Below the pieces are notes generated by a model. It did no database searches and was not told the origin of the DNA. It was given only the letters and a program-made list of their open reading frames with translations. Source: Eledone cirrhosa (lineage: Eukaryota). Taken from it: a stretch of 64,000 bases of DNA. The DNA lies in NCBI GenBank assembly GCA_964016885.1, contig OZ024742.1:354082001-354146000 (forward strand), in the 5' to 3' direction. The translations under genes were made by a program, and so were the position numbers. This document shows, one piece after another, positions 3,974 to 29,837 of this stretch; the stretch's first letter is position 1; each line of letters starts with the position of its first letter.

Positions 3974-6900
3974 ATGGAGACTAGAACGTCATGTGACAGA
4001 CTCTCACCCAACAGGTGCCCCCTGGCTCAGCAGCAGGAACCTGACTGTCAACCAAATACTGCTGATGTTGGAGGAAGGAGAAGAAGGAAAGGGGCCAGAA
4101 CCAACTGGACGAAAGAATTGAATAGAACTGTTATGCAATGCTACCTGAAAAGTAACCCCAAGGAGAGGAGCTACAGGAGACGGATGCATAACATCTGGAA
4201 CGAGATTGGTTTATTTAAATTAGATGAACAAAAATTGGCCGGGCAGGCTCGGGTAATAAGAACTAATGGGTGGATAAGCGAGCTGGAACTGGAGGAACTG
4301 AGCAGAGAGAATGGCTTGGAGATGGCGGGTGTAGTATGCCAGACAAGCGAGCCGGTGGGAAATGAAGGTGAGGAGGTCCTGAGAACGGAGGAACCACCCG
4401 AAGCAGACAATGATCTGAGTACTGAGATAAATAATACCTGGAACAGAGATACGGCCACTGAGGAGATGAATGCTGACGGGCTAGGACAAGATTCGGTTGA
4501 CATCCTAAATTTAGTGGTAGATGAATTGAACAATGATAGTGGGAGACCTATGAACCTAAGATTTGTAGACAGGAAAAAGTTAAAAGAAACAACAGCTAAG
4601 GTAAACAAAGTCATCCCATACCTTGAGGCGAGGAGCCTTCACCAGTGCAACAATATCCTCAGAGCAACAGCAAATACGGTGAGGAAACTACTTGGTATAA
4701 AAGCGAGAGGAAACAACAGACAAGAAAGAGCAGAGCCGTGGCGGAAGAAGCGACTGAGTGGGCAAATCGGGGAAATGAGAAATGACATAGGAAAGCTTGA
4801 GTCACTACTGAATGGGACACTAAAAAACATAGGCACTAAAAATAGACTGGAAATAAAATACAAAACTAGGAGTAAAAAGCTAAATATTATCATAGAGGAA
4901 TTGAAGCAACGCATTGTAGCAAAGAGTGCAAAAATCAGGCGATACGAGAACAGAGTCAGTCAGTATAAACAGAACCGCATGTTCGACAACAACCAGAAGA
5001 TGCTGTTTGGACAGCTTGAGGGCAAAGAAAGAGGCAACGACTTGATCCCTGGGGCGGAGCAAACTAAAACATTCTGGAGAGGAATATGGGAGCAGGATGT
5101 TAGACACAATGCCCAGGCAGGGTGGATTGAGACAGTACAGAGGGAGATCGGTGAGCAGGCACAGCAACAGACTGATTTGAGTATCACAGTTGAAACTCTT
5201 AAGGGACAAGCCAAAAAACTAACCAACTGTAAATCGCCAGGCCCAGATGGTGTGCAGGTGTATTGGATTAAACATCTAACATCCCTCCACCCGAAGCTGA
5301 CGGCCATGTTCAATGACTGCTTGGTGTCGGGTGAGGTGCCAGAGTGGTTGACAAAAGGTACCACAGTTCTGATAATGAAATACCGAATCAAGGGTAATGA
5401 TGCTACCAACTATAGACCTATCACATGTCTGCCCGTAATGTGGAAACTGTTGACGAGTATTGTGTCTGAGGAAATCTACCATCACCTCCACACAAACAAC
5501 TTGTTGCCGGACGAACAGAAAGGATGCCGAAAGAAGTCACGTGGTACAAAGGACCAGTTGCTTATTGATAAGATGGTAATGGGGAATTGCAGGAGGAGAC
5601 ACACTGATCTTGCCATGGGATGGATAGACTACAGAAAGGCATTTGACATGGTGCCTCATTCCTGGATCACCAAAAGCCTGGAGATCTTCAGGGTGGCGGA
5701 TAACATCAGACAGTTGCTAGGCAGGAGTATGGGGCCCTGGGAGACAGAGTTGACATCAACTGGAGTATCCTTGGGAAGCGTGAAGATCAAGAGAGGTATC
5801 TTCCAGGGAGATAGCCTGTCCCCTCTGTTGTTTGTCCTTGCCCTGATGCCCTTGACCATTATGCTGCGAAAAGTGAGAGCAGGATACAAGTTGGGAAGGG
5901 GAGAGCTTACCATCAATCACCTCCTCTTCATGGACGATCTTAAGCTCTTCGGGAAAAGTGAGAAGGAGTTGGATGTGCTTGTTGACACTGTCCGTATTTT
6001 CAGCAGTGATATATGTATGCAGTTTGGTATTGGTAAATGTGGAGTCATTGTGATGAAGAGGGGTAGGTTGAGCAGAAGTAACGGCATCCAGATACCAACA
6101 GGTGAGATGATAAAGGAAATTGACTCTGAGGAAGGATACAAGTATTTGGGCGTTCTGGAGGCTGATGGCATAAAGAACAAAAAAATGAAGGAATTGTTAA
6201 GAACTGAATACATTCGGAGAGTAAGGAGCGTATTGAAGTCACATCTGAACAGCAGAAATGCCATAAGCGCAGTAAATTCCCGAGCTGTGTCTATTATTAG
6301 GTACAGTGCGGGAATTCTGAGATGGAATGTTGCTGAACAGAAAGAAATGGATAGGAAGACTAGGAAGCTATTGACTATCTACAACATGTTCCACAAGAGG
6401 AGTGATGTCGATAGACTCTACCTAAGGAGATCTGAAGGTGGAAGAGGTCTTATCAGCATAGAGGACTGTGTTCAGATGGAGAAAAACAACCTATACAAAT
6501 ACGTGACCTATAGTAAGGAGCCAATGCTCAGAGCTGTACTGAAGGAGGGGACAGTAGGCCAGGGGATGTCCAGGGAGGAAATAACATCAAGGAGGAAGAG
6601 CAGCCTTAAGGGAAAACCCCTTCATAGTACCTTCTTTGAGAAAACTGAATTTAGAGATCCACAGACATGGAACTGGTTGAGAAGAGGAGACCTCAAAAAG
6701 GCTACAGAAGGAATGCTAATGGCTGCGCAGGAGCAGGCCCTCAAAACGAAGTGGTTGAAGCACCATATCTACAAGGAGGAGGCCAACCCACTGTGCAGGA
6801 TCTGTGGAGAGAGAGAGGAGACTGTGGCTCACATTGTGTCCGAGTGTAAACACCTAGCCCAGACCCACTATAAGGGCTGGAGACACGATGTGATGGGCAG

Positions 6901-7517: not shown

Positions 7518-9287
7518 GGGAAGAAGACGCACGTGGTGGTAGAAGGTCATGAAATCGCTCCCGTAAGTTTTTGATTTTTAACATATTTAAATCAATTGTG
7601 AAATAACAATTCTTAGTACAAATGATGCATAAATCATCGAATAAAGTCTCATAAAATTTCGGATCCATAATATATTGTTATATCGCTCAAATATTCAATT
7701 TTGTATTATATATTTTATATTCAAAAAAGAAAATGGTTATAAATGGAAGAAAACCCCCTCTGTCTACACTATATAGAACAGCCAAATAACAGCAATTTCA
7801 CGAACACCAGAAACTTGATACACCACCTACCCCATCACCCCGCTGTGTACACTAAATATAACAGCCAGATAACGGCAATTTCACCACCACCACCACAAAA
7901 TGTGTAATTCCAATATTAAGAAAAATATGTCAACACATTTTAAACATACGCGTCTAACCGCATAGATTCACCGACCAAACAAACAAACTACAGTCTATTC
8001 AACAAAAGTCAGTAACGACAACGCCATGACTACAGTCACCGCCGCCACCACCCCATCCATCATTGCTACCACTATCCCATCACTTCCGCCACCACTCCTT
8101 CATTGCTACCACCGCTATTCCCCCATTGCCTTCTGTTAACTTACGAAAGGGGAAGGTGGCGGTATCACTAGACAATATTAATAAACAATATTAATATTTA
8201 ATTTTGGATCAGGAATATTAGAGTCGAAAAGGAGGAAATGGCAAAATGACTAAATAGTTAGCTAAATAGCTAAATAGCTAAGTGGACAGAGAAGATAATT
8301 TCACCACCAAAACCACCACCACTACCACGCTAAAAACTCTGGTCAAGTTGCCTCAACTTCAACACCATTACTACAGTGCTACGATCACATCACTACTCCA
8401 ACTACCTCCTGCTAAGTACTACTAGCACAGCACCACCACCACCACCACTGCCTCATTATCACTACCGCCGCTATTCTCTCCCACTATCTCCCGCTAACAC
8501 ATGCATCCTAATGTCCCCACCAAAAGAGGAAGGCATCAACATATATAACTAGACCGAATTGATGACCCGGTCAAAAAATAAAAAAAAAAAAAAAATCAAA
8601 ATCAAAGCAGCACAGCAACAACGATAAACGTAAATAAAAATGAAAAATGAAGAGAAAAACAAACAGACGGACAGAGAAGGGAAGGGAAAAACTTAGTCAG
8701 ACAGTCAAACATTACATTACAATGAAACTTATGTTTATTCTTTTGGGGTTTTTTTTTTGCCTGTTTGTTTGTTTGTTTATTTATGTTCGTCTACAGCGTG
8801 ATAGTGCCACACAAAAATCACCGGGAGTGATGAAATCACCCGTGGTTATGTAACCATACATTCACCAATCCTCGATATGAGTGTTTAAATGTCGAACCTA
8901 AACAGTTCGAATAACGGTGAAGTGGAGACTAGAATGTCATGTGACAGACTCTCACCCAGCAGGTACTCCCTGGCTCAGCAGCAGGGACCGGCTGTCAACC
9001 AAATACTGCTGGTGCCGGTGGAAGAAGAAGAAGGAAATGGACCAGAACCAACTGGACGAAAGAATTGAATAGAATTGTTATGCAATGTTACCTGAAGAGT
9101 GACCCCAAGGAGAAAGGCTATAGGAAACGAATGCATAACATCTGGAACAAAATTGGTCTATTTAAATTAGATGAACAAAAATTGGCCGGGCAGGCTCGGG
9201 TAATAAGAACTAATGGGTGGATAAGCGAGCTGGAACTGGAGGAACTGAGCAGAGAGATTAGCTTGGAAATGGAGATAAATGCAGCTG
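7518..9287 (+). mobile_element. Second Dong copy, head-to-tail, 3'-truncated (5'UTR and about 120 codons)
   Basis: Same 5' terminus as 2254. 8922-9275 is homologous to the ORF N-terminus, with the start changed to GTG and a frameshift. It ends in (TAA)n. Confidence 0.9.
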
Positions 9288-9324
9288 TAATAATAATAAT
9301 AATAATAAAAATAATGATAATAAT

Positions 9325-10248
9325 GATTTCTTTATTAACCACAAGGGTTAACATAAAGTAGAGATTAAGGACAGTACAGGACAATACAGGACGGAAAAAT
9401 TGTGGATTTCTGCGTGTAAAAAAACAAAAACAGAGGATGTAACAAAAAATAACAATGAAAAATTCCCCAATAGGGGGGATACTTCCGAGGGCCATTTGTG
9501 GAGAAAGCTCATTAAAAGGTCACAGTGACCCTGACCACCAGGGCAAGTGCCCTCTCCCAGCTGTCCACCTTTAATTTACAAACACCTACTCAGAGTAGGC
9601 CCATTCACTCGGGCCATACTTGCTTCTCTCACCCATCTTTCAACAAAATGCTGGGAAGAGAGCACTTCCCTCTCTACCCTGATTTTCCTCTTCAAATGAA
9701 ATTTGAAAAAGTTAATCAGGGCATCACCGAAAAGGGAAGTGCTCGTCTTCAGCCTTTTCAAACGTGTCCACCATACTATCTCTTTCGCCATGGCCACAGG
9801 ATAGATAAAAACTGCCTGCCCTTCCCTTCTAAAGGAAGATGGCGGAGCAATTCTCACGATGGACTCTGCTGATAGCTGGATCCGTCCTACACGTGACAGC
9901 AGGTGTTCGACATAAACCCACAAGTCAACAATGCTCGGAAACTGGACGAGTGAGTGCAGGACGGTTTCGTCGCGCTGCACCCATCTCGGACATGCCCGGC
10001 TGACGGCACCTCCATGCCTGTAGAGTTTATCCCGAACTGACAAATCTCCTCTGTAGCACTGCCAGGCCATGGATTTCTGGAAGTTGTCCATAGGCCCCGG
10101 CCCGAAAGTCCTTCCGAAGAGATTGGCTAGTCGATTTTCGTCGACGCCTAGAGTTTCTCCAAGTACGTCGTCACTCTTCCCCTCCACTAATCCTTTATAG
10201 AACGCCGAGGTGGAGTTTCCACAGATCACATTGCCGGATTGGTCGAGG
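9325..10248 (-). mobile_element. Tx1 family A, 5'-truncated copy with intact 3' end
   Basis: ORF 9576-10229 is the ORF2 C-terminus (FQKSMAWQCYRG, CPR..ETVLHSLVQ). The 3'UTR ends CCTTGTGGTTAATAAAGAAATC followed by (ATT)n. Confidence 0.9.
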
Positions 10249-10264
10249 AAATAATAATAATAAT

Positions 10265-10309
10265 AATTGTTTCTACTTTTGACACAAGGCCAGCAATTAC
10301 CCAGTGCAT
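10265..10309 (-). mobile_element. SINE 3' tail only (45 nt) within (TAA)n
   Basis: TTGTTTCTACTTTTGACACAAGGCCAGCAATTACCCAGTGCA matches the tail of the SINE at 634-823. Confidence 0.85.
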
Positions 10310-10317
10310 AATAATAA

Positions 10318-10645
10318 TGGCTCCTTAACTATGTCATTGTAAAGTTGGGCTAACAGCTCATGAGACTCTGTGAAGGCATTTATCCAAATATTTGGTATAT
10401 TGTCTTCTCCTGGGGATTTCCATTTGCTAGTCTTTCTAAGAGCCAAACGAAACTGTTCAACTGATATATGTTCCCATATTTGTCCCTCAAGGTAAGCTTT
10501 ATCTTTCATTTGTCTGTATATCCATGTGACATGTATATTATGAACTTTTTCTTTGGCCCAGATCTTTTCCCAGAGTTCTTGCACTTCCTCCTTTGGTGGT
10601 ATTGATTTAGCAGTTAGTGTTGACTTGCCAATTTTTTTGTAGAAA
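10318..10645 (-). pseudogene. Dong/R4-like ORF fragment (pre-RT region) of a second family, inverted
   Basis: QELWEKIWAKEKVHN..WKSPGEDNIPNIWI aligns to FWRGIWEQDVRHN..KSPGPDGVQVYWI of the 3974 ORF. Confidence 0.8.
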
Positions 10646-10649
10646 AGAA

Positions 10650-11344
10650 ATCACTGGAAGCTGGAGAAGTTAATATTAATTGTGGAATTGTTCAGGGTGA
10701 CTCTTTAGCACCGCTTTTATTCTGCAACGCACTTATACCATTAAGTAAAATGCTCAATAAAACAAAACATGCATATAAAGTCAATGACAAAACCATTAAT
10801 CACTTGTTCTACATGGATGACCTGAAACTATTTGCAAAAAATGATAAACAATTGCAAAGGCTATTATCCATTGTGGAACAGTTCAGTGATGACATTAAAA
10901 TGGAGTTTGGACTAGATAAATGCGCCAAAGCAGCGTTCACCAGAGGAAAGCTGCTGAAAAGTTCAGACATTAATCTTGATCGGAGGAGTGTGATAAGAGA
11001 ACTTGATCAAGAGGAAACTTACAAATATCTAGGTATTTGTGAAGGAGACGGAATCAAGCACTCGACAATGAGGGAAAGGATATGGAAGGAATGTTACCGC
11101 AGTGTAAGAGCAATCTTAAGAACGGAATTGAATGCAAGGAATAGGATCGATGACATAAACACGCTTGCCATACCAGTAGTAACCTAGTTACAATGTCATC
11201 AACTGGTCAAGCACAGAGATCCGTAGGCTCGATACAAAAATTCGAAAATTCTTAACCATGCACAGAATGCATCACCCTAAGGCAGATATAGATAGAATAT
11301 ATCTCCCTAGGAAAGAAGGAGGACGTGGGTTAATCCAGTTAGAT
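10650..11344 (+). pseudogene. Dong/R4-like RT core fragment of the same second family
   Basis: GIVQGDSLAPLLF, HLFYMDDLKLF, YKYLG, HPKADIDRIYLPRKEGGRGL; frameshift near 11187. Confidence 0.9.
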
Positions 11345-14300
11345 ATGCTGGGAAAGAGCACTTCCCTCTCTACCCTGATATTCCTTTTCAAATGAAACTT
11401 GAAAAAGTTAATTGGCATCACCGAAGAGGTAAGTGTTCGTCTTCAGCCCTTTCACACGTGTCCACCATACTTTCTCTTTCGCCATAGCCACCAGACAGAT
11501 AAAAATTGCCTGCCCTTCCCGGCTAAAGGAAGATGGCGGGGCAATCCTCACGATGAACTCAGCTGATAGCTGGAGCCGTCCTACACGTGAAAGCAGGTGT
11601 TCGACATAAACCCACAAGTCAGCAATGCTCGGACACTGGACGAGTGCGTGAAAGACGGTTTCGTCGCTCTGTGCGCAACTCGGACATGCCCGGCTGACGG
11701 CACCTCCATGCATTAGAGTTTATCCCGAACTGGCAGAGCTCCTCGGTAGCACTGCCAGGCCAGGGATTTCTGGAAGTTGTCCATAGGCCCACGCCCGAAA
11801 GTCCTTCCAAAGAGATTAGCGAGTTGATTTTCGTCGACGCCTAGTTTTTCTCCAAGTATGTCGTCGCTCTTCCCCTCCACTAATCCCCTATAGAACGCAA
11901 AGGTGGTGTTTCCACCGATCACATTGCGCGATTGGTTGAGGGCTGTGAGCGCCTGAAGACATTCCAGTCTCCAAGCACTCCGTCTCGGTCTTTGCTTGAC
12001 TCAGGACTGCAGCTTCGTCAAGGAGACGAGCTGGGGAAAGACGCGTCTAGCAAACGGCGACCACACCTGATCACCGTCGAGGAAGAGGTGGAGATGTCGT
12101 AGCCTGAGCGCGTGTCTACGCATCATCAGCCACGGCATGCCCAGCCTTCCACGTAGCGGGTGTTGACAGCAGATGGACCGCCTGACCATCGGAGCGCATC
12201 CCTTCCACAAAAAGTGAAAGAGCAAACGCTCAAGCGCAGTCAGTCGGGGCTTGAGGCAAGGTACGATGGTCAGGTGATAGTAGATGACGGACGTGAGGTA
12301 CGCTTTAGCCACCTCCGCTCGACCTTTCAGGGATAGCTTCCTCTCCGCCCATTTCTGGGTGAGAGAAGCCACCCTGCTCGTCACCTCGTTCCAGTGTTTG
12401 TCCGTCTGGAGGTCCGGACCGAACCAGACCCCTAGCAATTTAACCGATCCGACCGTCCAGCGTCCGACGACGCTGTTGGACGGCATGGACTTGCCTCTCC
12501 AGGTGCCGAGTTGCAGGCCCACTGACTTTTCCTGGTTGATCATTGCTCCTGTCACCGCTTCGTATTCTCTTAGTGGAGTGCCGATCACCTCGATGTGTTT
12601 GGCGTTCGACACCACCACGGTACCTTCGTCCGCATATGCTGACACGGATCTTCCGCATCCTAGTTCGCGCGGGACCCCCCTCAACGTCTCCAGTTTGTGC
12701 AGTAATGACTCGAGAGTCAATACGTACAAGAGGGACGAGAGGGGACATTCTTGGCGGACCGAGCGCATGATATTGAACGGTTTCGAAAGGTGACCGTTCA
12801 CTCTCACCACAGAGCAGATTTAGCTGTGCATGGCAGCGATCCAGCATCTTAAGACGGGCCCAAAGCCAGCCGCCCTCAGGGCTGCCGCTAGGTAACGATG
12901 GTTGACCCTATCGAAAGCTTTCGACTGATCTAAATTGATCTAGGACACACCCGTGCCAGGTTCCATAGCTACCCTCTCTGCGGTGTATCGCATGAGGTGG
13001 AGGTTGTGGTGGATGGATCTGTCGGGAATGGCGTCTGCGCCTCTCCCACCAGACAAAAAACGACAAGCGCCAACCTCTTTGCTAGCACCTTGGCCAAAAT
13101 CTTGAACTCTGTGTTTAGCAGGGTTATAGGCCTGAAAGTATCGATGTTATCCCCCTTGTTCGGATCCTTTCTCAGCAGCGCCACAGCTCCTCGGCTCACA
13201 GAGCTGGGAATTCACCCATTCTGTTGCCAGTTGCAATAGACTCTACCAAGAGGCCCCCGAACAAGTCTGGCATCTGTACGTAAAGTTAATAGTGCAGACC
13301 GTCTAAACCAGGCGGTTTACCCCTGGCGCAGCCAGTCATTGCCTCCCGTACTTCAGCGGATGTTATCGGCTTTTCGCAACACTCCGCCTCAGTGGCCCAG
13401 AGTCGCGGCAATCCGTCGAGGTAGACACTAAAGTCCATCCCTTGTTCCGGCCAGCCGCTGGCCCCGAACAGCTGTGCGAAGCGTCGCTGAAAAGCTTCAC
13501 ACATTTTCCCGGGATTGTGTAGCAGGCGCCCTTCGTGGTACAACAAAGACCGGATCGCTTTGTTGCCACGACACGTCTCCGCCACTCGGGCCCATTGAAC
13601 GGCTTTCGTCCCCTCGTGTCTGAGAGCACGCACCCTAGATCTGACAACGCAGCCTTAGTGCTTAGCATTGAAGTATTGCCAGGGGCCAATTTCGCCGCAA
13701 GTACGTCGGTCGCGATGCCTTTGCGTCTAATTTTCGTCTAATTTTTTAACTAATTCTCCCTCTGCTCTATTTTTCTCCATTGATAAAGCCTTACTAAACC
13801 TAATGGACTCTATTCTAATTGCTCTTTTCAGAGCAAACCACCACTTGTTGTTGACGATGGACCCCGTCAACACCCGCTTAACTAGTTCGCTAATCCGGTC
13901 TCTGTAGCCCTTGCGCGCTGGCAAGGACGCGTTTAGCTTCCAGTAGCCGGTTCCTCGTCTCTGAAGCCTATCTAAGTCAAGCACACAATCACGAATTTGT
14001 GGTCCGTGTAGCTGTTGTGTAGTCCTTTTCTATGATGCTGGTGTTGTGTTGGATGTAGTGTAATAATTGGTTGTTGTTCAAAGTTAATGCTGTGTAGTGT
14101 GTATCGTTTTGGTTGTTTTGTTTTGTTTGCGTTTGTTGTGGGTTTGTTTCTGTTTCGGTTTTTGATGACTTTTGTGGTGTTGGTGATGGCGGTGTTGCGG
14201 TTAATGATGGTCATGGTGTTGGTGTTTGTGGTGATGGGGTTGGTGATGCTGGTGTGGATGGTGGCATATCTGTCCTAACTTTTTTGTTTGATAGTTTATT

Positions 14301-15952: not shown

Positions 15953-16142
15953 AATTGTTTCTACTTTTGGCACAAGGCTAGCAATAACCCAGTGTATTAC
16001 TGGTACTTTATGTTATCGACCCCATAAGTAAGAAAGGCAATGTTAACCTCGGCGGGATTTGAACTCAGAATGGCAAGGGCCGTAACTCTATGTGTCAAAG
16101 CATGACGTCTGACCCTCTACCGATACTGCCAATCCACCGCCC
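15953..16142 (-). mobile_element. Full-length tRNA-derived SINE
   Basis: Same A box, B box and tail as 634-823. Confidence 0.9.
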
Positions 16143-16956
16143 TTAACATTAATAACAGTAATGATAATAATAAAGGAGAAATACGATGATAGTGATTAAT
16201 ATAAACAACGGCACGAAGAAGAACAATAATTACAAGAGAAATACAAATGTGTATAATGAAAAGTTTATAAGATAGGGCTGATCACTAACAGTTAAACGTG
16301 GTACTAGTAAAAGGCGATAAAAATCAATACAATTAGCAAGAGATGGTAAATATGATACACACAAAGAAAACCTACCGTATAAACCCTAACATACAATAAT
16401 AAAATTAGACTAGAGGAATAAAAAATTAATACGAAAATAATATTCGTTGTGAATAATTATGTTAAAGGGAAAGAGACGTGTTATGTTCTAGCCATTTGAT
16501 TCTAAGAAAAATAAAGAAAATAACAGAACAAGTATGTACTGGCAAAATTTTTCATTAAATCAAAATTAATCTTCGAAAGATTGCGATTGATTCTGATATT
16601 AGTAGCTAGAGGCAAAATTTGATTACGAACCATTGTTTGTTTACTCCACGTTCAGTCATCTTTATAATGTTGTCAGCTATGAAAGAAATTGCGACTAGAC
16701 AGGACGCACACATATGTGAACGTATAGGTGATTAGGTATAATGAATTTGAGATAATTGATATATTGAATTAATCTATATATCGGAGACGTGTTTGTACCT
16801 GATTTCATAGCAACGTGTTTACGATCATCAATAGAAAAATATAAATATACACGCACGTATTTCACCAATACTATCTAGGCAGGACGAAAGACAAGCAATA
16901 GACTTACTGTTTTCCATATAACGAAACAGAACTGAACGAAACTTTACGTACATAAT

Positions 16957-16996
16957 TATCTATCTCTCTATCTATCTATCTATTTATCTATCTATC
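16957..16996 (+). repeat. (TATC)n microsatellite, the 5' flank of the Tx1-B pair
   Basis: Seen directly; TATC repeats recur at 20831-20855 and 26677-26692. Confidence 0.9.
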
Positions 16997-19900
16997 CCCC
17001 ACCCTAATGGAAATTGCGCAGCCCGATACCCGGGACGCAGAGAGGTAAGTGCCTTTTCTCTTCACCACCAACAGGGCTATGCTAAGAGTAGGCTGTTTAA
17101 ATGCGCGTGGCCTGGGCTCAACTTGGAAGCAAGCAATGCTTCTAAATGACCTCAGGTCACAACGTATAGATGTGATGGTTATTTGCGAGGCCCGGATCAG
17201 CAACGTGCGACAGCTGGCCCCCACCTTTGATGACTTTGAGATGCACGCATCTCTCTGTCAGCCCGGAGGTGTACGGTGGAGTTGTCGTTCTGCTGCAAAA
17301 ACATCTGGGTCTCGCAACACAGATGGTACATTTGGACCCGGAGGGTCGACTAGTGGTTCTGGACCTTGGCAGTGGTAAAGGCGGAGCGTTTAGGTTGGTA
17401 GCCGCCTACGGCCCTTTCGGGTCAATGCGGCCGGACTTCTTCCATCGTCTGGAGACTTTTCTGGGGACGTCCCGCTCCTTGCTATTAGTGGGGGACTGGA
17501 ATGGTATCCTAGATGCACGCTGGGACTACGTAGGGGCCTGCCCCGATAGAGAGGGGTGTAATAGCCTCAAAGGGTTAATCGGTCGATTTGACCTGGCCGA
17601 TAGATATCGACTAGATTTTCCGACTGCGCCAACCTGGACTTGGGCAAATCGTAGCAGATCATCTAGGTCGTACCTAGATAGGTTCTTAGTTAGAATTAAG
17701 GATAAGGACTTTTTAAGTTGTCCAAAAATGCGCATGGTTGGCTATTCAGACCACAAATTAGTGACCTGCATGGTCAACCTTGACAGAACTCATAGAGAGG
17801 GCCCCGGTTACTGGAAGCTCAACTTGCCCTTGCCGGCAAGTAGAGCGTACAGGAATCGGATTAGTACGTTAGTTAAGGAACGGTTGACTGGAGCGATCGT
17901 CAACAGCAGGTGGTGGGTATCTCTAAAGAGAGAGATTAGAGTAGTCTCGATAGAATTTAGTAAGGTTCTAGCTGCGGATAGGAATAGGAAGGAAAGGGAG
18001 CTAATAGATAGAGTAGAAGAGGCAATTAGAAGCGGCGACGTGGCCAGAGTGCTAGCGTCGAGAACGGCTTTGAGCCAGTTTTTCGACGCGAAGCACGAAG
18101 GCTGCGTTGTCCGAAGTAAAATACGTGCTCTAGGGAACGAAGGGACCAAAGCTGTTAGCTGGGCCCGCGTGACAGAGGCCAACAGTGGAACTAAATCCAC
18201 CATCCGGTCTTTGCGAGACCTGGATGGACGGGCGATTCTTGAGCCTAAGCAGATGTGTGAGGCCTTTCAAAGGCACTTTGCTCGACTGTTCGGGAGGGGC
18301 GGGGAGCCGGTTGGGAACGTGGACTTCGGTCCATACATCGACGGCCTGCCGCGCCTCTCGGACAGGGAGGCGAAGTCCTGCGAGGAGCCGATTTCGGCCG
18401 CTGAGATAGAGGACGTGCTGAGCCAATGCGGCAAACGCAAATCCCCGGGTCTCGATGGTCTTCCTTACGAATTATATCTAGCTATGCCGGACTTGTTCCC
18501 CGATCTCCTCGAGGCGGTCTACTGCAACTGGCAACAGAACGGGAGAATTCCCTGTACTGTGACCAAGGGCGTAGTCACGCTAGTGGGGAAGGGCGAGAAC
18601 AAGGGGGACGAAATAAGTAACTTCAGGCCCATAACTCTGCTAAATACAGAGTTACAGATTTTGGCCAAGGTGCTAGCAAAGAGGTTGGCGCTTGTCGTGG
18701 GCAACCTGGTGGGAGATGCGCAGACATGCGCTATCCCGTCCAGGTCCATCCATGACAACCTCCACCTCATGCGATACATCATAGAGAGGGTTGGGAACGA
18801 ACCCGTCTTTGGTGGGGCTCTGATCAACTTGGATCAATCTAAGGCGTTGGATTGGGTCGACCATGGTTACCTGGATGCGGTGCTAGCGGCGGCAGGCTTC
18901 GGACCCGTTTTCAGGGGCTGGATCACTGCTATGCACAGCAGCCGCATCTGCTCTAGGGTCAAGGTGAACGGCTACCTCTCGGAGCCGTTCAAAATCTCGC
19001 GGTCCATCCGACAAGGGTGCCCTCTCTCCTCCCTTCTGTATGTGTTGACTCTCGAGCCACTACTTCGGAAGTTGGAGTTGTTGCAGGGCATCCCTTTGGA
19101 ACCGGGATTGCGGAAAGCGGTGTCGGCCTACGCCGATGACGTGACAGTAATGGTGTCGACGGCCTCCGAAATCGAGGCGGTCGGCACCTTACTGGAGGAG
19201 TACGAAAAGTTCACAGGGGCTAAGCTGAACCGGGACAAGTCGATCGGTTTGCAACTCGGCACGTGGAGGGGCAGACCGATGCCCTCCGATGGCGTCGTCG
19301 GACGCTGGACGGAGGGCCCGGTGAAGTTGCTCGGGGACTGGTTCGGACCGGACCTCCAGGTGGAGAAAAACTGGGCGGAGGTTACGAACAGGGTGTTTGC
19401 ACTGACCCAGAAGTGGGCCAGTTGCAAACTATCCCTGAAAGGTCGGGCGGAGGTGGCGAACACCTACATAGCGTCCGTCATCTACTACCGCCTGACCGTA
19501 GTGCCCTGCCCAAGGGAAACCCTCACGAAGATGGAGCGCGCGCTCTTCCAATTCCTTTGGAAGAGGCGGGCTCCTATGGTGAGGAGATCCATCTGCTGTC
19601 AACACCCTTCGAAAGGAGGGCTGGGGATGCCGTGGCTAATGATGCGTAAACACGCATTAAGGCTACGGCACCTCTACGTATTCCTCACCGGACAACCGGT
19701 GTGGGCCTCGTTTGTGAGACGAACCTTTCCCAGACTCGTCTCACTCACCGAGCTGCAATCCTGGGTCAAGCAAAGACCGAGAAAACTGGGCGCCTGGCAC
19801 ACTGAGTGTGCCCAGGCGCTCACCGCCCTCTGGCAGGCGGATCCGGTTATCAGTGGAGACTCCACCGCAACATTCTATAGAGGGCTGGTACGCAGCAGGT

Positions 19901-20830
19901 GCGACGACGCCCTCGGAGAAGCCCTAGACATGGAGGAGGACGAACTGGCCAGCCTGTTCGGTAGGACATTCAGCCCGGGACCTATGGACAACTTCCAGAA
20001 GTCCCTGGCCTGGCAGTGCTACCGAGGAGCTTTACCGGTTCGAGAAAGGCTCTACAGACACGGGCGCCCGGGTAGCGACCCCGCCAAAAATATCTGTCCC
20101 AGATGCGTGTGCGACGAGGAAACCGTTGCACACGCATTGGTACACTGCTCGGGCGTAGCCGATCTGTGGGGCTATGTCGAACAACTGCTGTCAAGGGTGG
20201 GACCGATCCGGTTGACCACCGAGTCTATTGTAATGATCAAGCCGCCTTCCCCCTTCAAAGATGAAGCAGAGGCGGTGTTTCTGTGCGTAATAGCCATGGC
20301 GAAAGAGGTTGTATGGTGGACGCGTCTGAAAGGACTGAGGTCAGGCACCTTTTTCTCTGGCCAACAACTGGTCCGTTTCTTCCGATATCATTTCGGAAGA
20401 AGGATCAGGATGGAGAGAGAGGTGCTGCACCCCAGTCGTTTTTATGAAAGGTGGGTGAAAGTGGCGAGAATGGCCCGTGTGAATGGGCCTTCTCTTTACA
20501 TGAGCCTGTAGGTGGAAAATAGGAAGGAACGAAGGAGCACCCCCTCTCTGTGCTCCTGAGGAAAAGGGTTGCACACTTTTTTCGGGGGTGTGTGCGACCC
20601 CCCAAGGCGCCTCCTCTCTATTGAGGATTTTGTTATAAATTTTATTTTTTGTTATATTTTATAACAAAATCCTCTATTGAGGATTTTGTTATAATTCTAT
20701 TTTTTGTTATATTTTATTTTATTTTTATATATTGTTATTGCCTCCTCCCTATTGAGGACGCCTTGTTTTGTAAACTCCCCCCATTGTACTTGTCCCACTT
20801 TTGATGCCCTTGTGGCAAATAAAAGAAACA
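16997..20830 (+). mobile_element. Tx1-clade LINE B1, 5'-truncated within the last codons of ORF1
   Basis: Starts with MEIAQPDTRDAER*, homologous to the B2 ORF1 end. Full ORF2 and a 3'UTR with AATAAA, followed by (TATC)n. Confidence 0.9.
17079..20511 (+). pseudogene. Tx1-B1 ORF2 (APE endonuclease, RT, CCHC) with one frameshift near 17270
   Basis: CLNARGL and CEA are in one frame; GDWN, YLDR, SDHK, RQGCPLS, YADD and CPRC..HALVHC are in the other. Confidence 0.9.
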
Positions 20831-21090
20831 TATCTATCTATCTATCTATATATCTCCCACAATCTAGCTGTCGTCTGTTCTACAGTGTGGATGTCATTCA
20901 CTTCGCACAGAAGTTTTGTTCAAATTTATTGAGGAAATTTTGTGAGTTCAAACTTAATTTTGATACAATTGTGTAGCTTGACCCTCCGTCTGAACTGTCA
21001 GGCGGTGGGTCAGCTCATCTTTACCCCTCCTAGAGGTGAAAAACCTGTTTTAAAAAATGTTGTGTAAAAAATTTCAATCGTCTAACAGAA

Positions 21091-22991
21091 ATGTTAAACG
21101 CAGCGAACGAAAATAGTGGTGGGGGGACAGCGGTAAGAGTTGTAAGCTCGCACGCTTTAGTCCTCCCTTCCTTCCCAACTAACGTCATAGAGAAGGAAGA
21201 AAAAATTAAAATAAAAACAGACGAATCTGCGGAGAAAAAATTAAATGACGAAAACACAAATCTGGACTTGGATTCAAACAACGAAGAAAAAAAATTTGAA
21301 AAATTGCATGACAATACTAATAACACAAACAAAGACACAACAAACGCAAAAATAACAGTTGAAAATAACACCATATCAGAAAACAAAGCAGACGACAAAA
21401 TTTCATTTGCACAGAAAACAAAGAATCTTTGACTTATATAGCGGAAAACATTTCAGATGTGGTACGAAGGATCACGGACGCCAAACAATACATAAGTGAA
21501 GGAGAAAATGGTATTTTATCGGTAAAAATGCCTCAAGAATTCACGAATGACATTGAAAGCCGAACGGTCAAGTTTCGGACCATCAACAACAGTACAAAAA
21601 AACCTGAACAGCCTTCTCAAGCAGATATCAAAACAGTACTCACAGAAGTACTTAATGAAACCACTTTCATAAGAAAAGACAGACTGTATGGAAGCCTAGC
21701 AATTATCATGAAGAACGAATCGGCGGCAAAAAAATGTGCTTTGTCACCGATTCGTTCAACAAATTTCACCTTTTATCCATCTTATATGGGGAAAAGAACT
21801 CAACGCATATGGCTGGATGCAATGATGCCAGATGTGGACTACTGCTGGCTCATAGCTGGCTTCATCGATCCAGTGAATGACAACGTGATTTCCATTGGGA
21901 AAACCACAGGCAATGCGTTCAGTGGAACAGGTATAGAGCTGGTAGTACAAATGAAGCCTGAACGCATCGCCCAAATACCCGACAGAATCCTATTAGAGGA
22001 CCACGGGTATATAAACATTAGCGTGGAGGGGAGAAGGCCGTCCTGCCATATCTGTGCAGGCAGAGGGCACCTGAAGGCCGCTTGTCCCCAACTCAACAAA
22101 AAGAAAACCCTGCTACCAACACCAGCTCCACCACCACCACCACAACAGATAAACAAACAACAAAACTCAGTCCCACCCAACCTGTCCCTCAGTAAAACCA
22201 CAACACCACCACAACACAAACAGTCACAACACATTACCCCAAAACAAAATACAGGCCCACCCAACCTCTCACTCAATAAAACAACACAACCACCGCAGAC
22301 ACAACACACAACACAGTCTAACATAGTGACATCCATCTCCCCCACAAAGAAAACCAACACGGAAACATTACCAGCAAACATACCTCTTCCCTCCAACACT
22401 GAAGATAACCCAACGAATTCGGAGGAAGAAACGGAGTCCTTCAGACAGATTAAAAGGAAAAAAAGAAAACATGTGCAAAACACACAAGGACAAACAACCC
22501 CCACCCAAATCTCAACACAATCCAACAAAATAGAAAACACCCCTCCAGCAACAAACAAAACCAAACCTGCCCCTCCCCTCTTCGAAACACTCACACCATC
22601 GGAAAAAAAGACATTACACTATACTTACATCAACAGAAACAATAATAAATTAAATGAGCTCATATACAATAATCCTTCGGTACAAACCGAAGGTGTAAAC
22701 TTTGTTTCGTCAGAAAACTACCCACATTTAAAACTAATAAAGATCCCAATGAACCTCTACCAAAAACTAAAAAAGGATTTTAAGGAGGACGTAGGACCAC
22801 CCTCTGTCAAACCCATAAACCGCGTCCTACTAAAAAGCTTTCCCCCTCCCCTTCCCCTCCCCAACACAACTCCAAACACCCCAACCCCACCACACACTGA
22901 CGACCCCACACCACCACAAGACACCCCTTCACCCAACACCCCCGACCCCATGGAAGTCGTGCAACCCGAACCCCGGGAAGCGGAAAGGTAG
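21091..22991 (+). pseudogene. Tx1-B2 ORF1 (gag-like, CCHC knuckle, Pro/Thr-rich tail), split by a 1-bp frameshift near 21429
   Basis: ORFs 21091-21432 and 21429-22991 together align to family A ORF1 (SFA..K, RTIN, VEGRRPSCHICAGRGHLKAAC). Confidence 0.85.
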
Positions 22992-23024
22992 GTCTCTACA
23001 ATCTCCTTTGGCTCTGCCGCCCAC

Positions 23025-26000
23025 ATGGATGTGTTAAGAGTAGGATGTTTGAATGCACGTGGCCTGGGCTCAACTTGGAAGCAAGCAAAGCTTCTAAATG
23101 ACCTCAGGTCATGTAGTATAAATGTAATGGTTATCTGTGAGACTCGAATCAGCGTCGTGCGGCAGCTGGCCCCCACCTTCAATGACTTTGAGGTGCATGC
23201 ATCTCTCTGTCAACCTGGAGGTGGGGGTGGGGTTGTCGTACTGCTGCAAAAACACCTGGGTCTTGCCGTACAGGTTGTGCACTCGGACCCGGAGGGTCGT
23301 TTGTTGGTGCTAGACGTTGGCAGTTGTGAAAGTGCGGCCTTGAGACTGGTCGCCGTCTACTCCCCTTTCGGAGCTGAACGGCCCGACTTCTTCCAGCGTT
23401 TGGAGACTTTTCTGGGAACGTCGCGTTCCCTGCTTCTAGCGGGAGATTGGAATGACATCCTGGATGCACGTTGGGACTATGCAGGAGCATGTCCTAATAG
23501 AGGGGGGTGTAACAGACTCAAGGGGTTACTCGACAGTATTAACTTGGTCGATAGATATCGATTAGATTTTCCAACTGTGCCTACCTGGACTTGGAGAAAC
23601 CACAGTGGTCAATCTAGATCGTACTTAGATAGATTCTTAGTTAGAAGTCAGGATAGGGACATATTAAGCTGTCCAGAAATGTGCACGGTTGGCTACACGG
23701 ATCACAAATTAGTGACCTGCGTGGTCAATCTCGAGAAAACACATAGACAGGGTCCCGGTTACTGGAAACTTAATTTGTCTCTACCGGCAAAAGAGACTTA
23801 CAGAAACCGGATTAGCAGATTAGTTAAGGAGAGGTTGACGGGTGCAATCGTCAACAACCGATGGTGGGCATCTCTCAAAAGAGAGATTAGAACAGAATCA
23901 ATAAGTTATAGCAAGATGTTAGCTGCCGATAGGAATAGAAACGAGAAAGAATTAACAGGTAAATTAGAAGAGGCAATCAAGAGCGAAGATGTGGCCAGAG
24001 TGCTGGCATCGAGGACGGCCTTGAACCAGTTTTTCGATGCAAAGCACGAAGGCTGCGTCATTCGAAGTAAAATACGTGCTCTAGGTAATGAGGGGGCCAA
24101 AGCCGTTGGATGGGCCCGCGTGACAGAAGCTAAGAGTGGAAATCGATCCACCATCCGGTCGTTGCAAGACGAAGATGGACGGGTGATCCGGGAGCCTAAG
24201 CAGATGTGCGAGGCCTTTCAAAGGCACTTTGCCCGATTGTTCGGGGGAGGCGAGGGTCCGGGCGGGGGCGTCGATTTCGGTCCATACCTCGACGGCCTGC
24301 CGCGTCTCTCGAACGAAGAGGCAGAGTCCTGCGAGGGACCAATCTCGGCTGATGAGATCGGAGATGCGCTGAGCCAATGCAGCAGACGCAAATCTCCAGG
24401 TCTCGATGGTATACCATACGAACTTTATTTAGCGATGCCGGTCTTCTTCTCCGAACTCCTCGAAGCGGTCTACTGCAATTGGCAGCAGAACGGGAGAATT
24501 CCTTGTTCTGTAGCCAAGGGCGTAGTCACGCTGGTGAGGAAGGACGAGAACAAGGGGGATAATATAAATAATTTTCGGCCCATAACCCTGCTAAACACAG
24601 AGTTAAAGATTTTGGCCAAGGTGTTAGCAAAGAGGTTGGCGCTTGTCGTGGGTGGCCTGGTGGGAGATGCGCAGACATGTGCTATCCCATCCAGGTCCAT
24701 TCCCGATAACCTCCACCTCATGCGATACATCATAGAGAGGGTTGGCAACAAACCCGGCTTCGGTGGGGCCCTGATCAACTTAGATCAGTCTAAGGCCTTC
24801 GAGAGGGTCGACCATGGTTACCTGGATGCGGTGCTAGCGGCAGCTGGGTTCGGTCCTGTTTTCAGAGGCTGGATCACTGCCCTACATAGCAACCACATAT
24901 GTTCTAGGATCAAGGTGAACGGCTACCTTTCGAAGCCGTTCGAAATCACACGATCCATTCGACAGGGGTGCCCTCTCTCCTCCCTTCTGTACGTATTGAC
25001 TCTCGAGCCTTTACTGAGGAAGTTGGAGTTGTTGCAGTGTATCCCCCTGGAACCAGGATTGAGCAAAGCGGTGTCGGCCTACGTCGATGACGTAACAGTA
25101 ATGGTATCAACCGACTCGGAGATCGAGGCGATCGGTACCTTACTGGAGGAGTACGAAAAGTTGTCAGGAGCGAAACTGAACCGGGAAAAATCCATCGGGC
25201 TGAAACTCGGAACGTGGAGAGGCAGACCGATGCCTCCTGACGGTGTCGTCGGACACTGGACGGAGGGCCCGGTAAAGTTGCTTGGGGTCTGGTTTGGACC
25301 GGACCTCCAGGTGGAAAAGAACTGGAACGAGGTTACGAACAAGGTGTTTGCACTAACCCAGAAATGGGCCAAGTGTAAGCTGTCCCTAAAAGGCCGGGCG
25401 GAGGTGGCGAACATTTACATAGCGTCCGTCACTTACTACCGCCTGACTGTCGTGCCTTGCCCTAAGGAAACACTCACCACCATGGAATGCATGCTCTTCC
25501 AATTTCTTTGGAAGAAGCGTCCTCCTATGGTGAGAAGATCCATCTGCTGCCAACAACCTTCGAAAGGAGGGCTGGGGATGCCGTGGTTGATGATGCGTAG
25601 GCACACATTAAGGCTACGGCACCTACAGGTATTCCTCACTGGTCAACCGGTGTGGGCTCCGTTCGTGAAACGAGCCTTTCCGAGACTTGTCTCGCTCACA
25701 GAGCTACAGTCCTGGGTCAAGCAAAGATCCGGAAAACTGGGAGACTGGCACACTGAGTGTGCTCAGGCGCTCAGGGCTCTCTGGCAAGCGGGCCAGGCCA
25801 TCGGTGGAGAATCCACCTCAGCATTCTATAGAGGGCTGGTGGCTAGCAGGGGCGATGACACCCTTGGAGAGTCGCTGGACATGGAAGAAGACGAACTGGC
25901 CAGCCTGTTCGGTAGGACTTTCGGCCCAGGACCAATGGACAACTTCCAGAAGTCACTGGCCTGGCAGTGCTACCGGGGGGCTCTACCCGTTCGAGAGAGG

Positions 26001-26462
26001 CTCTACAGACACGGGCGCCCGGGCAGGGATCCCTCAAAAAAGATTTGCCCTAGATGCGTGCGTCACGAAGAAACCGTTGCGCACGCATTGGTGCAATGTC
26101 CGGGCGTGGCAGATCTGTGGGGCTACGCCGAACGACTGCTGTCGCGGGTGGCGCCGATTAAATTGACCGCGGAGTCCGTGATGACAATCAAACTGCCTCC
26201 CCTCTTCACAAAGGAAGCAAAGGCGGTTTTTCTGTGCGTAATAGCCATGTTGAAAGAGGTTGTTTGGTGGACACGATTGAAAGGTCTGAGGTCAGGCAAC
26301 TTCCTCTCTGGCCATAGTCTGGTCTACTTCTTCCGATATCACTTCGGAAGAAGGATAAGAATGGAGAGAGAGGTGCTTGGCCACAGGCAGTTTTATGAAA
26401 GGTGGGTGATAGTGGCGAGAATGGCTCGTGTAAATGGGCCTTCTCTGTATACCATCCTGTAG
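23025..26462 (+). CDS. Tx1-B2 ORF2: APE endonuclease, reverse transcriptase and CCHC (1145 aa, uninterrupted)
   Basis: CLN, CET, AVY, GDWN, YLDR, TDHK; FRPITLLN, LDQSKAF, RQGCPLS, YVDD; CPRC..HALVQC. Confidence 0.95.
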   Translation: MDVLRVGCLNARGLGSTWKQAKLLNDLRSCSINVMVICETRISVVRQLAPTFNDFEVHASLCQPGGGGGVVVLLQKHLGLAVQVVHSDPEGRLLVLDVGSCESAALRLVAVYSPFGAERPDFFQRLETFLGTSRSLLLAGDWNDILDARWDYAGACPNRGGCNRLKGLLDSINLVDRYRLDFPTVPTWTWRNHSGQSRSYLDRFLVRSQDRDILSCPEMCTVGYTDHKLVTCVVNLEKTHRQGPGYWKLNLSLPAKETYRNRISRLVKERLTGAIVNNRWWASLKREIRTESISYSKMLAADRNRNEKELTGKLEEAIKSEDVARVLASRTALNQFFDAKHEGCVIRSKIRALGNEGAKAVGWARVTEAKSGNRSTIRSLQDEDGRVIREPKQMCEAFQRHFARLFGGGEGPGGGVDFGPYLDGLPRLSNEEAESCEGPISADEIGDALSQCSRRKSPGLDGIPYELYLAMPVFFSELLEAVYCNWQQNGRIPCSVAKGVVTLVRKDENKGDNINNFRPITLLNTELKILAKVLAKRLALVVGGLVGDAQTCAIPSRSIPDNLHLMRYIIERVGNKPGFGGALINLDQSKAFERVDHGYLDAVLAAAGFGPVFRGWITALHSNHICSRIKVNGYLSKPFEITRSIRQGCPLSSLLYVLTLEPLLRKLELLQCIPLEPGLSKAVSAYVDDVTVMVSTDSEIEAIGTLLEEYEKLSGAKLNREKSIGLKLGTWRGRPMPPDGVVGHWTEGPVKLLGVWFGPDLQVEKNWNEVTNKVFALTQKWAKCKLSLKGRAEVANIYIASVTYYRLTVVPCPKETLTTMECMLFQFLWKKRPPMVRRSICCQQPSKGGLGMPWLMMRRHTLRLRHLQVFLTGQPVWAPFVKRAFPRLVSLTELQSWVKQRSGKLGDWHTECAQALRALWQAGQAIGGESTSAFYRGLVASRGDDTLGESLDMEEDELASLFGRTFGPGPMDNFQKSLAWQCYRGALPVRERLYRHGRPGRDPSKKICPRCVRHEETVAHALVQCPGVADLWGYAERLLSRVAPIKLTAESVMTIKLPPLFTKEAKAVFLCVIAMLKEVVWWTRLKGLRSGNFLSGHSLVYFFRYHFGRRIRMEREVLGHRQFYERWVIVARMARVNGPSLYTIL

Positions 26463-27187
26463 GTAAAGAAGTAAAGGAGAGGGTAGCACCTTCTCCATGT
26501 GCTCCCCGGGCAAAGGATTGCACACTTTTTCGGGGGTGTGTGCAACCCCCATCACGTCTCCTCCCTTTTGAGATTATTTTCGATTATTTTCATGTTACAC
26601 CCTTTTTACTCGATTATATGTAAACTCCCCCTTTGTATTTGTCCCTTCTTTTTATGCCTTTATGGTAAATATAGAAATCTATCTATATATCTCCCTCTCT
26701 CTATATATATATATATACCGTTTATCCTGATCGCTTGAAATGAAATACCGATAACGCGTAAGAAAATCCAAGAAGAAAAAAGATGAAACGAATAGCCAAA
26801 TTAGGACTGAATATATTGAATTGGATAAAGGAGGCACTAACATAATTATTAATCGCTACTATTATAGTCAGGTTATGAATTTAGTGTAACGTGTGCACCG
26901 GATATTGTGCAGACATCACACAATAAAACATGAGAGTGTCACAAATAAAGGTATCATGAACGAAATAAACGCTGTATAATAGGAGAATGAACTAATCTAG
27001 CGATACTATAGAAGGAAAAATGAAACAAACCCTCTCAACACTAATAGTAATACAAATAAGACATAAGATTGACAGAATGTCGTACAAATATTTATTTTAC
27101 CGGGTTGGTGGAAAACACATGCATATTGAAAGTTACTTATAACTTTTGATTTAGCGTGACACTTGGGACAATACCATTGACCTCACG

Positions 27188-27510
27188 TTGCTGCAAGATG
27201 GATCCTCACCATATGTTGAATGCATTGCTCCTGAGTGACATTTTGTCCAATTTCCAGGACGTTGGTCGGGTCAACGAGTTCAATATGAATGGCCAGCAAC
27301 AATCGCTGACTTAACATCATGCGATTTCTTCTTCTATGTGTGGGAGAAGAAATAAGTTTATAGTTTAAAACCAAAAGCTTTCACTTAATTGAAAGAACGC
27401 ATTCGTCATGAACTGCCCAGCACACCATATGAGTTCTTTACAATGTCAGCCGATAATGTACCGAGAAATTTACAAACACTACTGGATAACGCTGGGGTAT
27501 ATGTAAAACG
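27188..27510 (+). pseudogene. Tc1/mariner transposase relic with DD41D (rosa/Visitor) spacing
   Basis: Translates LLQDGSSPY...FPGRW...EWPATIADLTSCDFFF..VY..KP...LKERI, with 41 residues between the second and third Asp and in-frame stops. Confidence 0.75.
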
Positions 27511-27657: not shown

Positions 27658-27694
<37 letters not shown>

Positions 27695-27794
27695 GCTGCT
27701 GCTGCTAATAATAATGATAAGCTAACACTTTTAAATAAAGATTTTATTTTCACTCCCTATATAAGCATTCATAATATCTATTTATAACAGCAAA

Positions 27795-27828
<34 letters not shown>

Positions 27829-27950
27829 GTACTACTACCGATACTACTGCTGCTGCTCCTGCTACTAATACTACTACAACTATTACTACTGCTGCTGCTG
27901 CTGCTGCCGCTCCTGCTGCTTTTATTGTTGTTGTTCTTGCTGCTGCTACT
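27657..27950. repeat. (CTA)n/(CTG)n compound microsatellites with a short local duplication
   Basis: Seen directly; about 27586-27660 is repeated at about 27725-27795. Confidence 0.85.
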
Positions 27951-29615: not shown

Positions 29616-29683
29616 CTTTAAGCAAATAAGGGGAACCAGTAATAAGTGATAGATAAGGCATTCTCAAATGGAATAAGGAAAAT

Positions 29684-29837
29684 CTTCTTCTTCTTCTTCT
29701 TCTTCTTCTTCTTCTTCTTCTTCTTCTTCTTCTTCTTCTTCTTCTTCTTCTTCTTCTTCTTCTTCTTCTTCTTCTTCTTCTTCTTCTTCTTCTTCTTCTT
29801 CTTCTTCTTCTTCTTCTTCTCCTCCTTCTTCTTCTTC
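29684..29837. repeat. (TTC)n microsatellite
   Basis: Seen directly. Confidence 0.98.

Follow-up and report, generated by a model that had tools for sequence, protein, structure and literature searches.

The 64,000-nucleotide stretch of the Eledone cirrhosa genome analyzed here (contig OZ024742.1, positions 354,082,001 to 354,146,000; hereafter the window) carries two long interspersed nuclear elements (LINEs), termed B1 and B2, that lie one behind the other in a single (TATC)n/(GATA)n tract. This arrangement raises the question of whether the microsatellite is the insertion target of the lineage and, if so, how the target is recognized. The initial annotation, which was made from the sequence of the locus alone, had proposed that it may represent a new target specificity. 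From the analysis of further copies, B1 and B2 very probably represent a young and abundant lineage of LINEs of the L1 group, equipped with an apurinic/apyrimidinic endonuclease (APE), which inserts in one orientation into (ATCT)n, equivalent to (GATA)n, most likely through a nick combined with pairing of the RNA tail.

Direct reading of positions 16500-27200 confirmed the stacked arrangement (table 1). The array that precedes B1 is bordered upstream by unique DNA, with no 3' end of another copy there, and ATCT units follow the unique 3' end of B1 at 20831, which reads ...AAAGAAACAT (in its longer form ...GGCAAATAAAAGAAACAT); the repeat is therefore present on both sides of B1, as had been claimed. 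The 5' boundary of B1 at 16996 corresponds to the last codons of the first open reading frame (ORF1) of B2. The second element was said to have inserted into the 3' flank of B1 in the same orientation, and this was borne out by the 19-mer ATCTATCTATATATCTCCC, which occurs exactly twice in the window (20840-20858 and 26677-26695) and not once as its reverse complement. These two copies bracket B2 as an exact 19-bp target-site duplication (TSD), with a single extra A at 20859 at the 5' junction. A poly(A) tail is absent from both elements, and B1 and B2, which had been described as diverged and independent insertions, are distinct subfamilies, with numerous ~99% identical copies apiece. The ends of the window B2 recurred in 26 further fetched copies of 5591-5827 bp, to which its median identity was 98.1%; just before its tail it has AATATA, where AATAAA is found in 29 other copies. 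Neither window copy is fully intact, as B1 is frameshifted and ORF1 of B2 is interrupted.

We searched for further copies in the window's own 3.0-Gb genome. First-look candidates numbered 996, 1048, and 609; in each search only the best 40 were scored, and 30 loci were kept. These samples are non-random and lean toward young, complete copies. The B2 copies were 97.9-98.9% identical to the window copy, and the 40 copies scored among the 609 first-look candidates of the B1 family were all 99% identical. The ORF2 frame of 1156 codons was open in 14 of 27 full-length B2 copies and both ORFs were open in 6 of them, and recent activity of B2 is likely. At the 3' junctions, ATCT lay no more than 10 nt from ...AAAGAA in all 30 B2-type ends and followed directly in 25, with tails of 1.5 to more than 20 units; among the B1-type ends, ATCT followed directly in 29 of 30, and the remaining one showed only ATC. 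Poly(A) was found at none of these 60 ends. At the 5' junctions, an ATCT-phase 8-mer was present within 30 nt of 28 of the 30 full-length B2 copies, and the AGAT orientation in none; in the rest of the 64-kb window, the ATCT-phase 8-mer occurred in 2 of 1804 30-nt windows.

The 5'-truncated copies are more discriminating, since truncation can place their 5' ends at any position within the element. Among 58 B1 and B2 loci, the copy extended beyond the 1.5-kb flank in 32 and the break was an internal deletion in one, leaving 25 true junctions; 22 of these abutted an ATCT-type repeat (imperfect in 4), one abutted (ACCT)n, and two had no repeat. The initial annotation had noted that random 5' flanks in other copies would speak against a GATA target. 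We looked for such flanks, and what was found instead was the repeat in 28 of 30 full-length and 22 of 25 truncated cases, so that the proposed specificity holds among the copies sampled.

The TSDs were analyzed in 27 full-length B2 copies (the window copy and the 26 fetched ones), and a duplication was considered informative if at least five letters lay outside perfect ATCT runs. Sixteen were informative, with lengths of 13-27 bp (18-23 bp in 14 of them), and the other 11 copies sit within long arrays in which the TSD is uninformative. The duplication starts at the 3' end of the element or one base later, inside the repeat, and extends into the unique flank, as in ...ATCTATCTAGGAAA, TCTATCTATCTATCACACACAC, and TCTATATATGTGTAACCGAATA. 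Since the TSDs begin in the repeat and end in unique DNA, the first nick lies within the repeat or at its 5' edge, and the second follows ~20 bp farther downstream. Targets of only ~3.5 repeat units were used, and TG^TCTAT marks the start of the duplication in three short targets.

Related families with a different repeat were observed in the same genome. On the minus strand of the window, tblastn identified relatives of B2 with 50-80% amino acid identity at 9591-10241 and 11356-13999; a 5'-truncated copy of a family termed A lies at the former position (table 1). The A-type pieces are separated by unrelated sequence at 10300-11340 on the same strand, which contains a motif of the LINE reverse transcriptase (RT)-start type (..KSPGEDNIPN..) and is probably another inserted element. 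Family A had 1245 candidates, and its 39 scored non-window copies were 91-95% identical; at least three ATT units followed the 3' end in 27 of 29 copies, and ATT preceded 7 of approximately 10 truncated junctions. A second family, A2, was found at L261:2470-2745 and had 2197 candidates, with 39 scored non-query copies 96-98% identical and at least three ATT units at 17 of 19 3' ends. In 6 of the 19 A2 loci (L274, L278, L281, L283, L284, and L287), the (ATT)n tail is followed by one and the same sequence, which begins GGTGGATTGGCAGTATCGGTAGAG and may be a short interspersed nuclear element or a different element that likewise inserts into ATT repeats. The tail types were never mixed, with ATT on 0 of 60 B-type ends and ATCT on 0 of 48 A and A2 ends. 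An alignment of 14 3'-end variants, the ATT-tailed ones included, showed that the last ~25 nt are common to all, with a mean column identity of 76%.

In quick IQ-TREE trees, the ten ATCT-side clusters formed one clade with a Shimodaira-Hasegawa-like approximate likelihood ratio (SH-aLRT) support of 100. A and A2 were separate lineages in a fork with an NCBI protein whose order the trees leave unsettled, and a protein of Argonauta hians fell outside. These topologies suggest that one switch, probably from ATT to ATCT, would suffice. Metagenome contigs were uninformative on the age of the target: the 80 loci kept, from distant relatives, were 25-40% identical to the query, and of the 24 with the 3' part of ORF2, none had an ATCT tail, three had an A run, and one had (TGTC)4.

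On the basis of these observations, we proposed a combined mechanism, in which a preferential nick and tail pairing act together. The APE domain of the element would nick the bottom strand in or at the repeat with some sequence preference, and the element RNA, which presumably ends in AUCU units, would anneal to the nicked strand and prime reverse transcription. The AUCU units would be derived by read-through into the repeat downstream of the donor copy, because copies located outside repeats still bear ATC or ATCTATCT and because AATAAA is found 3-9 nt before the tail. Copies are stacked head to tail because the tail of each one constitutes a new target. The target of the lineage would have switched once, from (ATT)n to (ATCT)n.

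Several points weigh against this combined mechanism. All copies come from a single genome, and the trees behind the proposed switch were quick ones, built on ORF2 residues 771-1156, one third of ORF2, and rooted with proteins of ~40% identity. No join across B2, and thus no empty allele, was found in public sequencing-run contigs, and the pre-insertion sites were for this reason all reconstructed from the duplications. Within arrays, the RNA tail and the target have the same sequence, so that the place of the nick is there inseparable from the source of the tail units. Some copies depart from the rule. Of the two full-length B2 copies without the upstream 8-mer, one has a duplication that extends past a TATC/TGTC array and the other lies in CTAT(AT)n only; one duplication lies in (AT)n beside the repeat; and the truncated exceptions are the copy in (ACCT)n and the two without upstream repeat, which also lack a recognizable duplication. 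Divergence of the endonuclease (EN) domain, moreover, appears no greater between families with different targets than among those of the ATCT clade: among full-length copies, B2 shared 61% identity in EN and 76% in RT with E, a family with the same target, compared with 58-59% and 78-79% with A2, and 54-58% and 70-71% with A. Clade-diagnostic residues were enriched in EN only mildly (13 of 229, compared with 25 of 809 elsewhere).

These EN comparisons bear on the strongest alternative, in which EN has low specificity, the target is set mainly by the few repeat units at the RNA 3' end pairing with any nicked DNA, and the switch was a change of tail only. It would account for the lack of extra EN divergence across the switch, for 3'-end variants that share their last ~25 nt and differ chiefly in the tail unit, for the ATC or ATCTATCT still carried by copies outside repeats, and for the strict correspondence of tail and target types. 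However, pairing of poly(A) with T confers only weak specificity on L1, and the clade-diagnostic changes in EN include a cluster at residues 163-174 (WDYAGACPNRGGCN vs WDCVGVADRSGGCK), which is suggestive but not decisive. In addition, the target choice of other sequence-specific APE LINEs is credited mainly to EN in the cited parts of PMC4494074 and PMC3812793. We regard target choice by the tail as a real but somewhat improbable alternative to a preferential nick assisted by tail pairing. A bolder version is that an octopod L1-group lineage exchanged (TAA)n for (GATA)n as its target through a change in the few units templated at the 3' end of its RNA, with no contribution from EN. Such a lineage would be an RNA-guided LINE that is programmable by nature, and its thousands of young copies would both seek and seed most long GATA arrays; this we consider unlikely.

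The association was also viewed from the side of the arrays. The pattern (ATCT)10 had 94,230 overlapping matches on both strands genome-wide, and arrays with 10 or more perfect units were inspected on contig C1, where we took the first 23 distinct ones (0-25 Mb) together with 1.5 kb of flank to either side. Sixteen directly abutted a family member, in the form of a 3' end on the upstream side, a full-length or truncated copy on the downstream side, or both; two were ambiguous (one with an inverted 3'-end fragment, the other with just 10 nt left of a 3' end), and five had none. The neighbors included more subfamilies, with different 5' untranslated regions (UTRs) and an ORF1 36-59% identical to that of B2. 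At L119:1541-1930, beside (ATCT)14, a reverse-complement fragment of a family 3' end lacks the AATAAAGAA end, and two more 3' ends lie within 400 nt, so that the arrangement there is complex or rearranged. With ~70% of the sampled long GATA arrays bearing these elements, the numbers of GATA microsatellites in octopods, their behavior as markers, and the assembly of such regions are probably tied to LINE activity.

It is highly unlikely that (ATCT)n is merely a 3' tail encoded by the element and that the upstream repeats are the tails of earlier copies, next to which later ones happened to land. Stacks are indeed common: at least 15 of the 28 repeat-bearing 5' flanks lie behind the 3' end of another copy, from several subfamilies, and the 10-nt 3'-end remnant among the 23 arrays can be read in the same way. 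Against this, the other 13 flanks have no 3'-end motif within 150 nt, pass into unique DNA, and are ordinary genomic microsatellites; the repeat upstream of B1 likewise borders unique DNA, the TSDs comprise both repeat and unique flank, and targets of ~3.5 units were used. Passive accumulation, that is, random insertion followed by survival and pile-up in microsatellite-rich DNA of low recombination, as was reportedly proposed for Waldo-A/B near CA repeats, could draw on the abundance of several simple repeats in the flanks, among them (TA)n, (TC)n, and (TGTC)n, but is scarcely credible given base-exact junctions, a fixed orientation (28 ATCT vs 0 AGAT), TSDs that begin in the repeat, and copies that at 98-99% identity have had little time for sorting.

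Table 1. Positions of the B1/B2 stack and of related elements in the 64-kb window
Positions	Strand	Feature	Details
9285..10270	-	Family A, 5'-truncated copy	3' end ...CCCTTGTGGTTAATAAAGAAATC then (ATT)n; (ATT)6 directly upstream of the truncated 5' end
11356..13999	-	Second diverged relative, cut off on its 3' side	ORF2 residues 239-1129; tblastn
16957..16996	n/a	(TATC)10 microsatellite, 5' flank and target of B1	Tandem Repeats Finder: period 4, 10 copies, 88% matches
16996..20831	+	B1, 5'-truncated within the last codons of ORF1	3641 nt aligned with B2, 82.5% identical
20832..20858	+	(ATCT)n tail of B1; also the target of B2	Holds the 5' TSD copy, 20840-20858
20860..26676	+	B2, full-length element, 5817 bp	5' end CAATCTAGCTG...; 3' end ...GGTAAATATAGAA
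21091..22991	+	B2 ORF1, interrupted near 21423	CCHC knuckle CHICAGRGHLKAAC; ORF listing and Tandem Repeats Finder
23025..26462	+	B2 ORF2, open	1145 aa from ATG 23025; 1156 codons stop-to-stop
~23088-23648	+	APE domain of B2 ORF2	
~24558-25289	+	RT domain of B2 ORF2	
~25950-26120	+	CX2CX8HX4C motif of B2 ORF2	
26463..26676	+	B2 3' UTR	Last ~25 nt (GCC..TGG.AAATAAAGAA type) conserved in 14 sampled 3'-end variants
26677..26695	+	3' copy of the B2 TSD, ATCT units then unique flank	Exact 19-mer match

In B2, the break in ORF1 is a one-base length difference compared with a copy in which this frame is open. An 84-nt unit is repeated 2.1 times in tandem at 22141-22315 (Tandem Repeats Finder), within the Pro/Thr/Gln-rich part of ORF1, and in-frame length differences of ORF1 were seen among B2 copies; no Pfam family matched this ORF. 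The ORF2 of B2 had been described as open with its APE catalytic motifs retained, and both statements agreed with our reading: the residues aligned to the human L1 endonuclease positions N14, E43, Y115, and D145/N147 are present, as are the motifs ...SYLDR... and ...TDH.... Pfam matches were obtained for Exo_endo_phos (2.2e-08) and RVT_1 (3e-25), and zf-RVT scored 27.0 bits, below its cut-off of 27.5. Direct reading of the C-terminal part gave the CCHC motif CPRCVRHEETVAHALVQC, for which the pattern of the L1 group is CX1-3CX7-8HX4C. The ORF2 of B1 extends from an ATG at 17079 to a stop at 20511 and matched RVT_1, Exo_endo_phos, and zf-RVT; a +1 frameshift near 17270, in the APE domain, breaks the tblastn match into 17079-17270 and 17275-20508. 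The 3' UTR of B1 contains short internal duplications with periods of 18-28 at 20628-20738, which B2 lacks. A 3'-terminal hairpin was considered and rejected as too weak, since the structure retained by RNAalifold was limited to a GCC/GGC stem of 3 bp, in which 2 of 14 variants show a single compensatory pair, and a scan of 16000-27500 against Rfam gave no match.

Elsewhere in the window, a plus-strand segment at 4982-5875 shows weak RT similarity to B2 ORF2 (25% over 311 aa) and probably belongs to another LINE class. Downstream of the stack, at 27658-27920 and 29683-29837, lie the trinucleotide arrays (TAC)12, (ACT)32, (CTG)11, and (TCT)52. With 20300-27300 as query, sequencing-run contigs labeled as two other organisms yielded B2-like pieces with very few differences (e.g., 3 in 261 nt), which places this family, or one very close to it, beyond the species label of the assembled individual.

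With an N-terminal APE domain, an RT, and a C-terminal CCHC motif, the B elements are placed by their domain content in the L1 group, which comprises the L1 and Tx1 clades. The initial annotation had assigned them to Tx1, and this is supported as far as the L1 group. The bit scores of B2 ORF2 were equal with a thrips protein automatically named "Transposon TX1 149 kDa" (170) and with human L1 ORF2p (170.7), and reached 217 with frog RT proteins. The nearest named relative was the hypothetical protein of A. hians (62% identity); the ESM Atlas gave only unnamed APE and RT clusters, and a protein search with the RT region returned almost no named matches among the 120 listed; neither search supplied a clade label. 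Two features of the Tx1 type are present, namely sequence-specific insertion into a repetitive target and a 3' end that lacks poly(A) and is joined to target-like sequence. The features of a microsatellite-targeting LINE are found as well, with the repeat upstream of variously truncated copies (22 of 25) and TSDs containing both repeat and unique DNA. The L1 clade proper, with its poly(A) tail and loose A/T-rich target, does not describe these elements.

Among known systems, Dong, of the R4 clade, has a restriction-like endonuclease that follows the RT on its C-terminal side, whereas the A, A2, B, and E families have an N-terminal APE domain and do not fit R4/Dong. TAA is listed as the target of Dong in the cited part of PMC3812793, and the (TAA)n/(ATT)n target that it has in common with A and A2 is convergent, because the endonuclease types differ. 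Waldo and Mino, with the targets (ACAY)n and (AC)n, are also APE LINEs, but they belong to a different clade, R1 (PMC3812793, in part), and B2 ORF2 matches Exo_endo_phos and L1 ORF2p. Human L1 ORF2p provided the best solved-structure match across EN and RT (PDB; 2.9e-49, residues 7-866), and human L1 likewise has two ORFs and a C-terminal CCHC motif; however, L1 ends in poly(A) and its target, TTTT/AA, is a loose one according to the same part of PMC3812793, whereas the B elements lack poly(A) and have a strict repeat target.

In Octopus vulgaris, the repeat annotation described in part of PMC13282606 lists 80 L1-Tx1 families covering 56 Mb, of which 13 families with 421 insertions were recently active, and L1-Tx1 is the only L1-group class among the recently active LINEs. 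The present families are probably among the relatives of these; the main text of that paper does not use the word "target," and TATC, GATA, and ATCT are absent from its main text and one supplement table. The microsatellite targets of APE LINEs given in the cited parts of PMC4494074, PMC3812793, PMC4640811, PMC5753468, PMC8967140, and PMC9115989 are TC, TTC, TTCC, TTTC, AC, and ACAY. A GATA/TATC target for such LINEs was not found in this literature; Repbase, Dfam, and the target supplements of PMC4494074, the last of which may list more Tx1 targets, lay outside the search. Repeat-seeking LINEs are thus already known, and what is new here, within the literature searched, is the (GATA)n target. 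Close counterparts are Kibi, Koshi, and crocodilian Tx1 elements such as Tx1-1_Crp and Tx1-2_AMi, which are likewise L1-group APE LINEs and occupy (TC)n, (TTC)n, (TTCC)n, and (TTTC)n according to the cited parts of PMC4494074 and PMC3812793, whereas the B elements occupy (ATCT)n/(GATA)n in a mollusc. The few published cases of microsatellite-targeting LINEs say little about what determines the target; in E. cirrhosa, sister clades with two targets in one genome, 54-79% ORF2 identity by domain between the (ATT)n and (ATCT)n clades, a shared 3' motif, and many young copies constitute a natural swap experiment for the determinant of specificity, be it the EN loop or the RNA tail.

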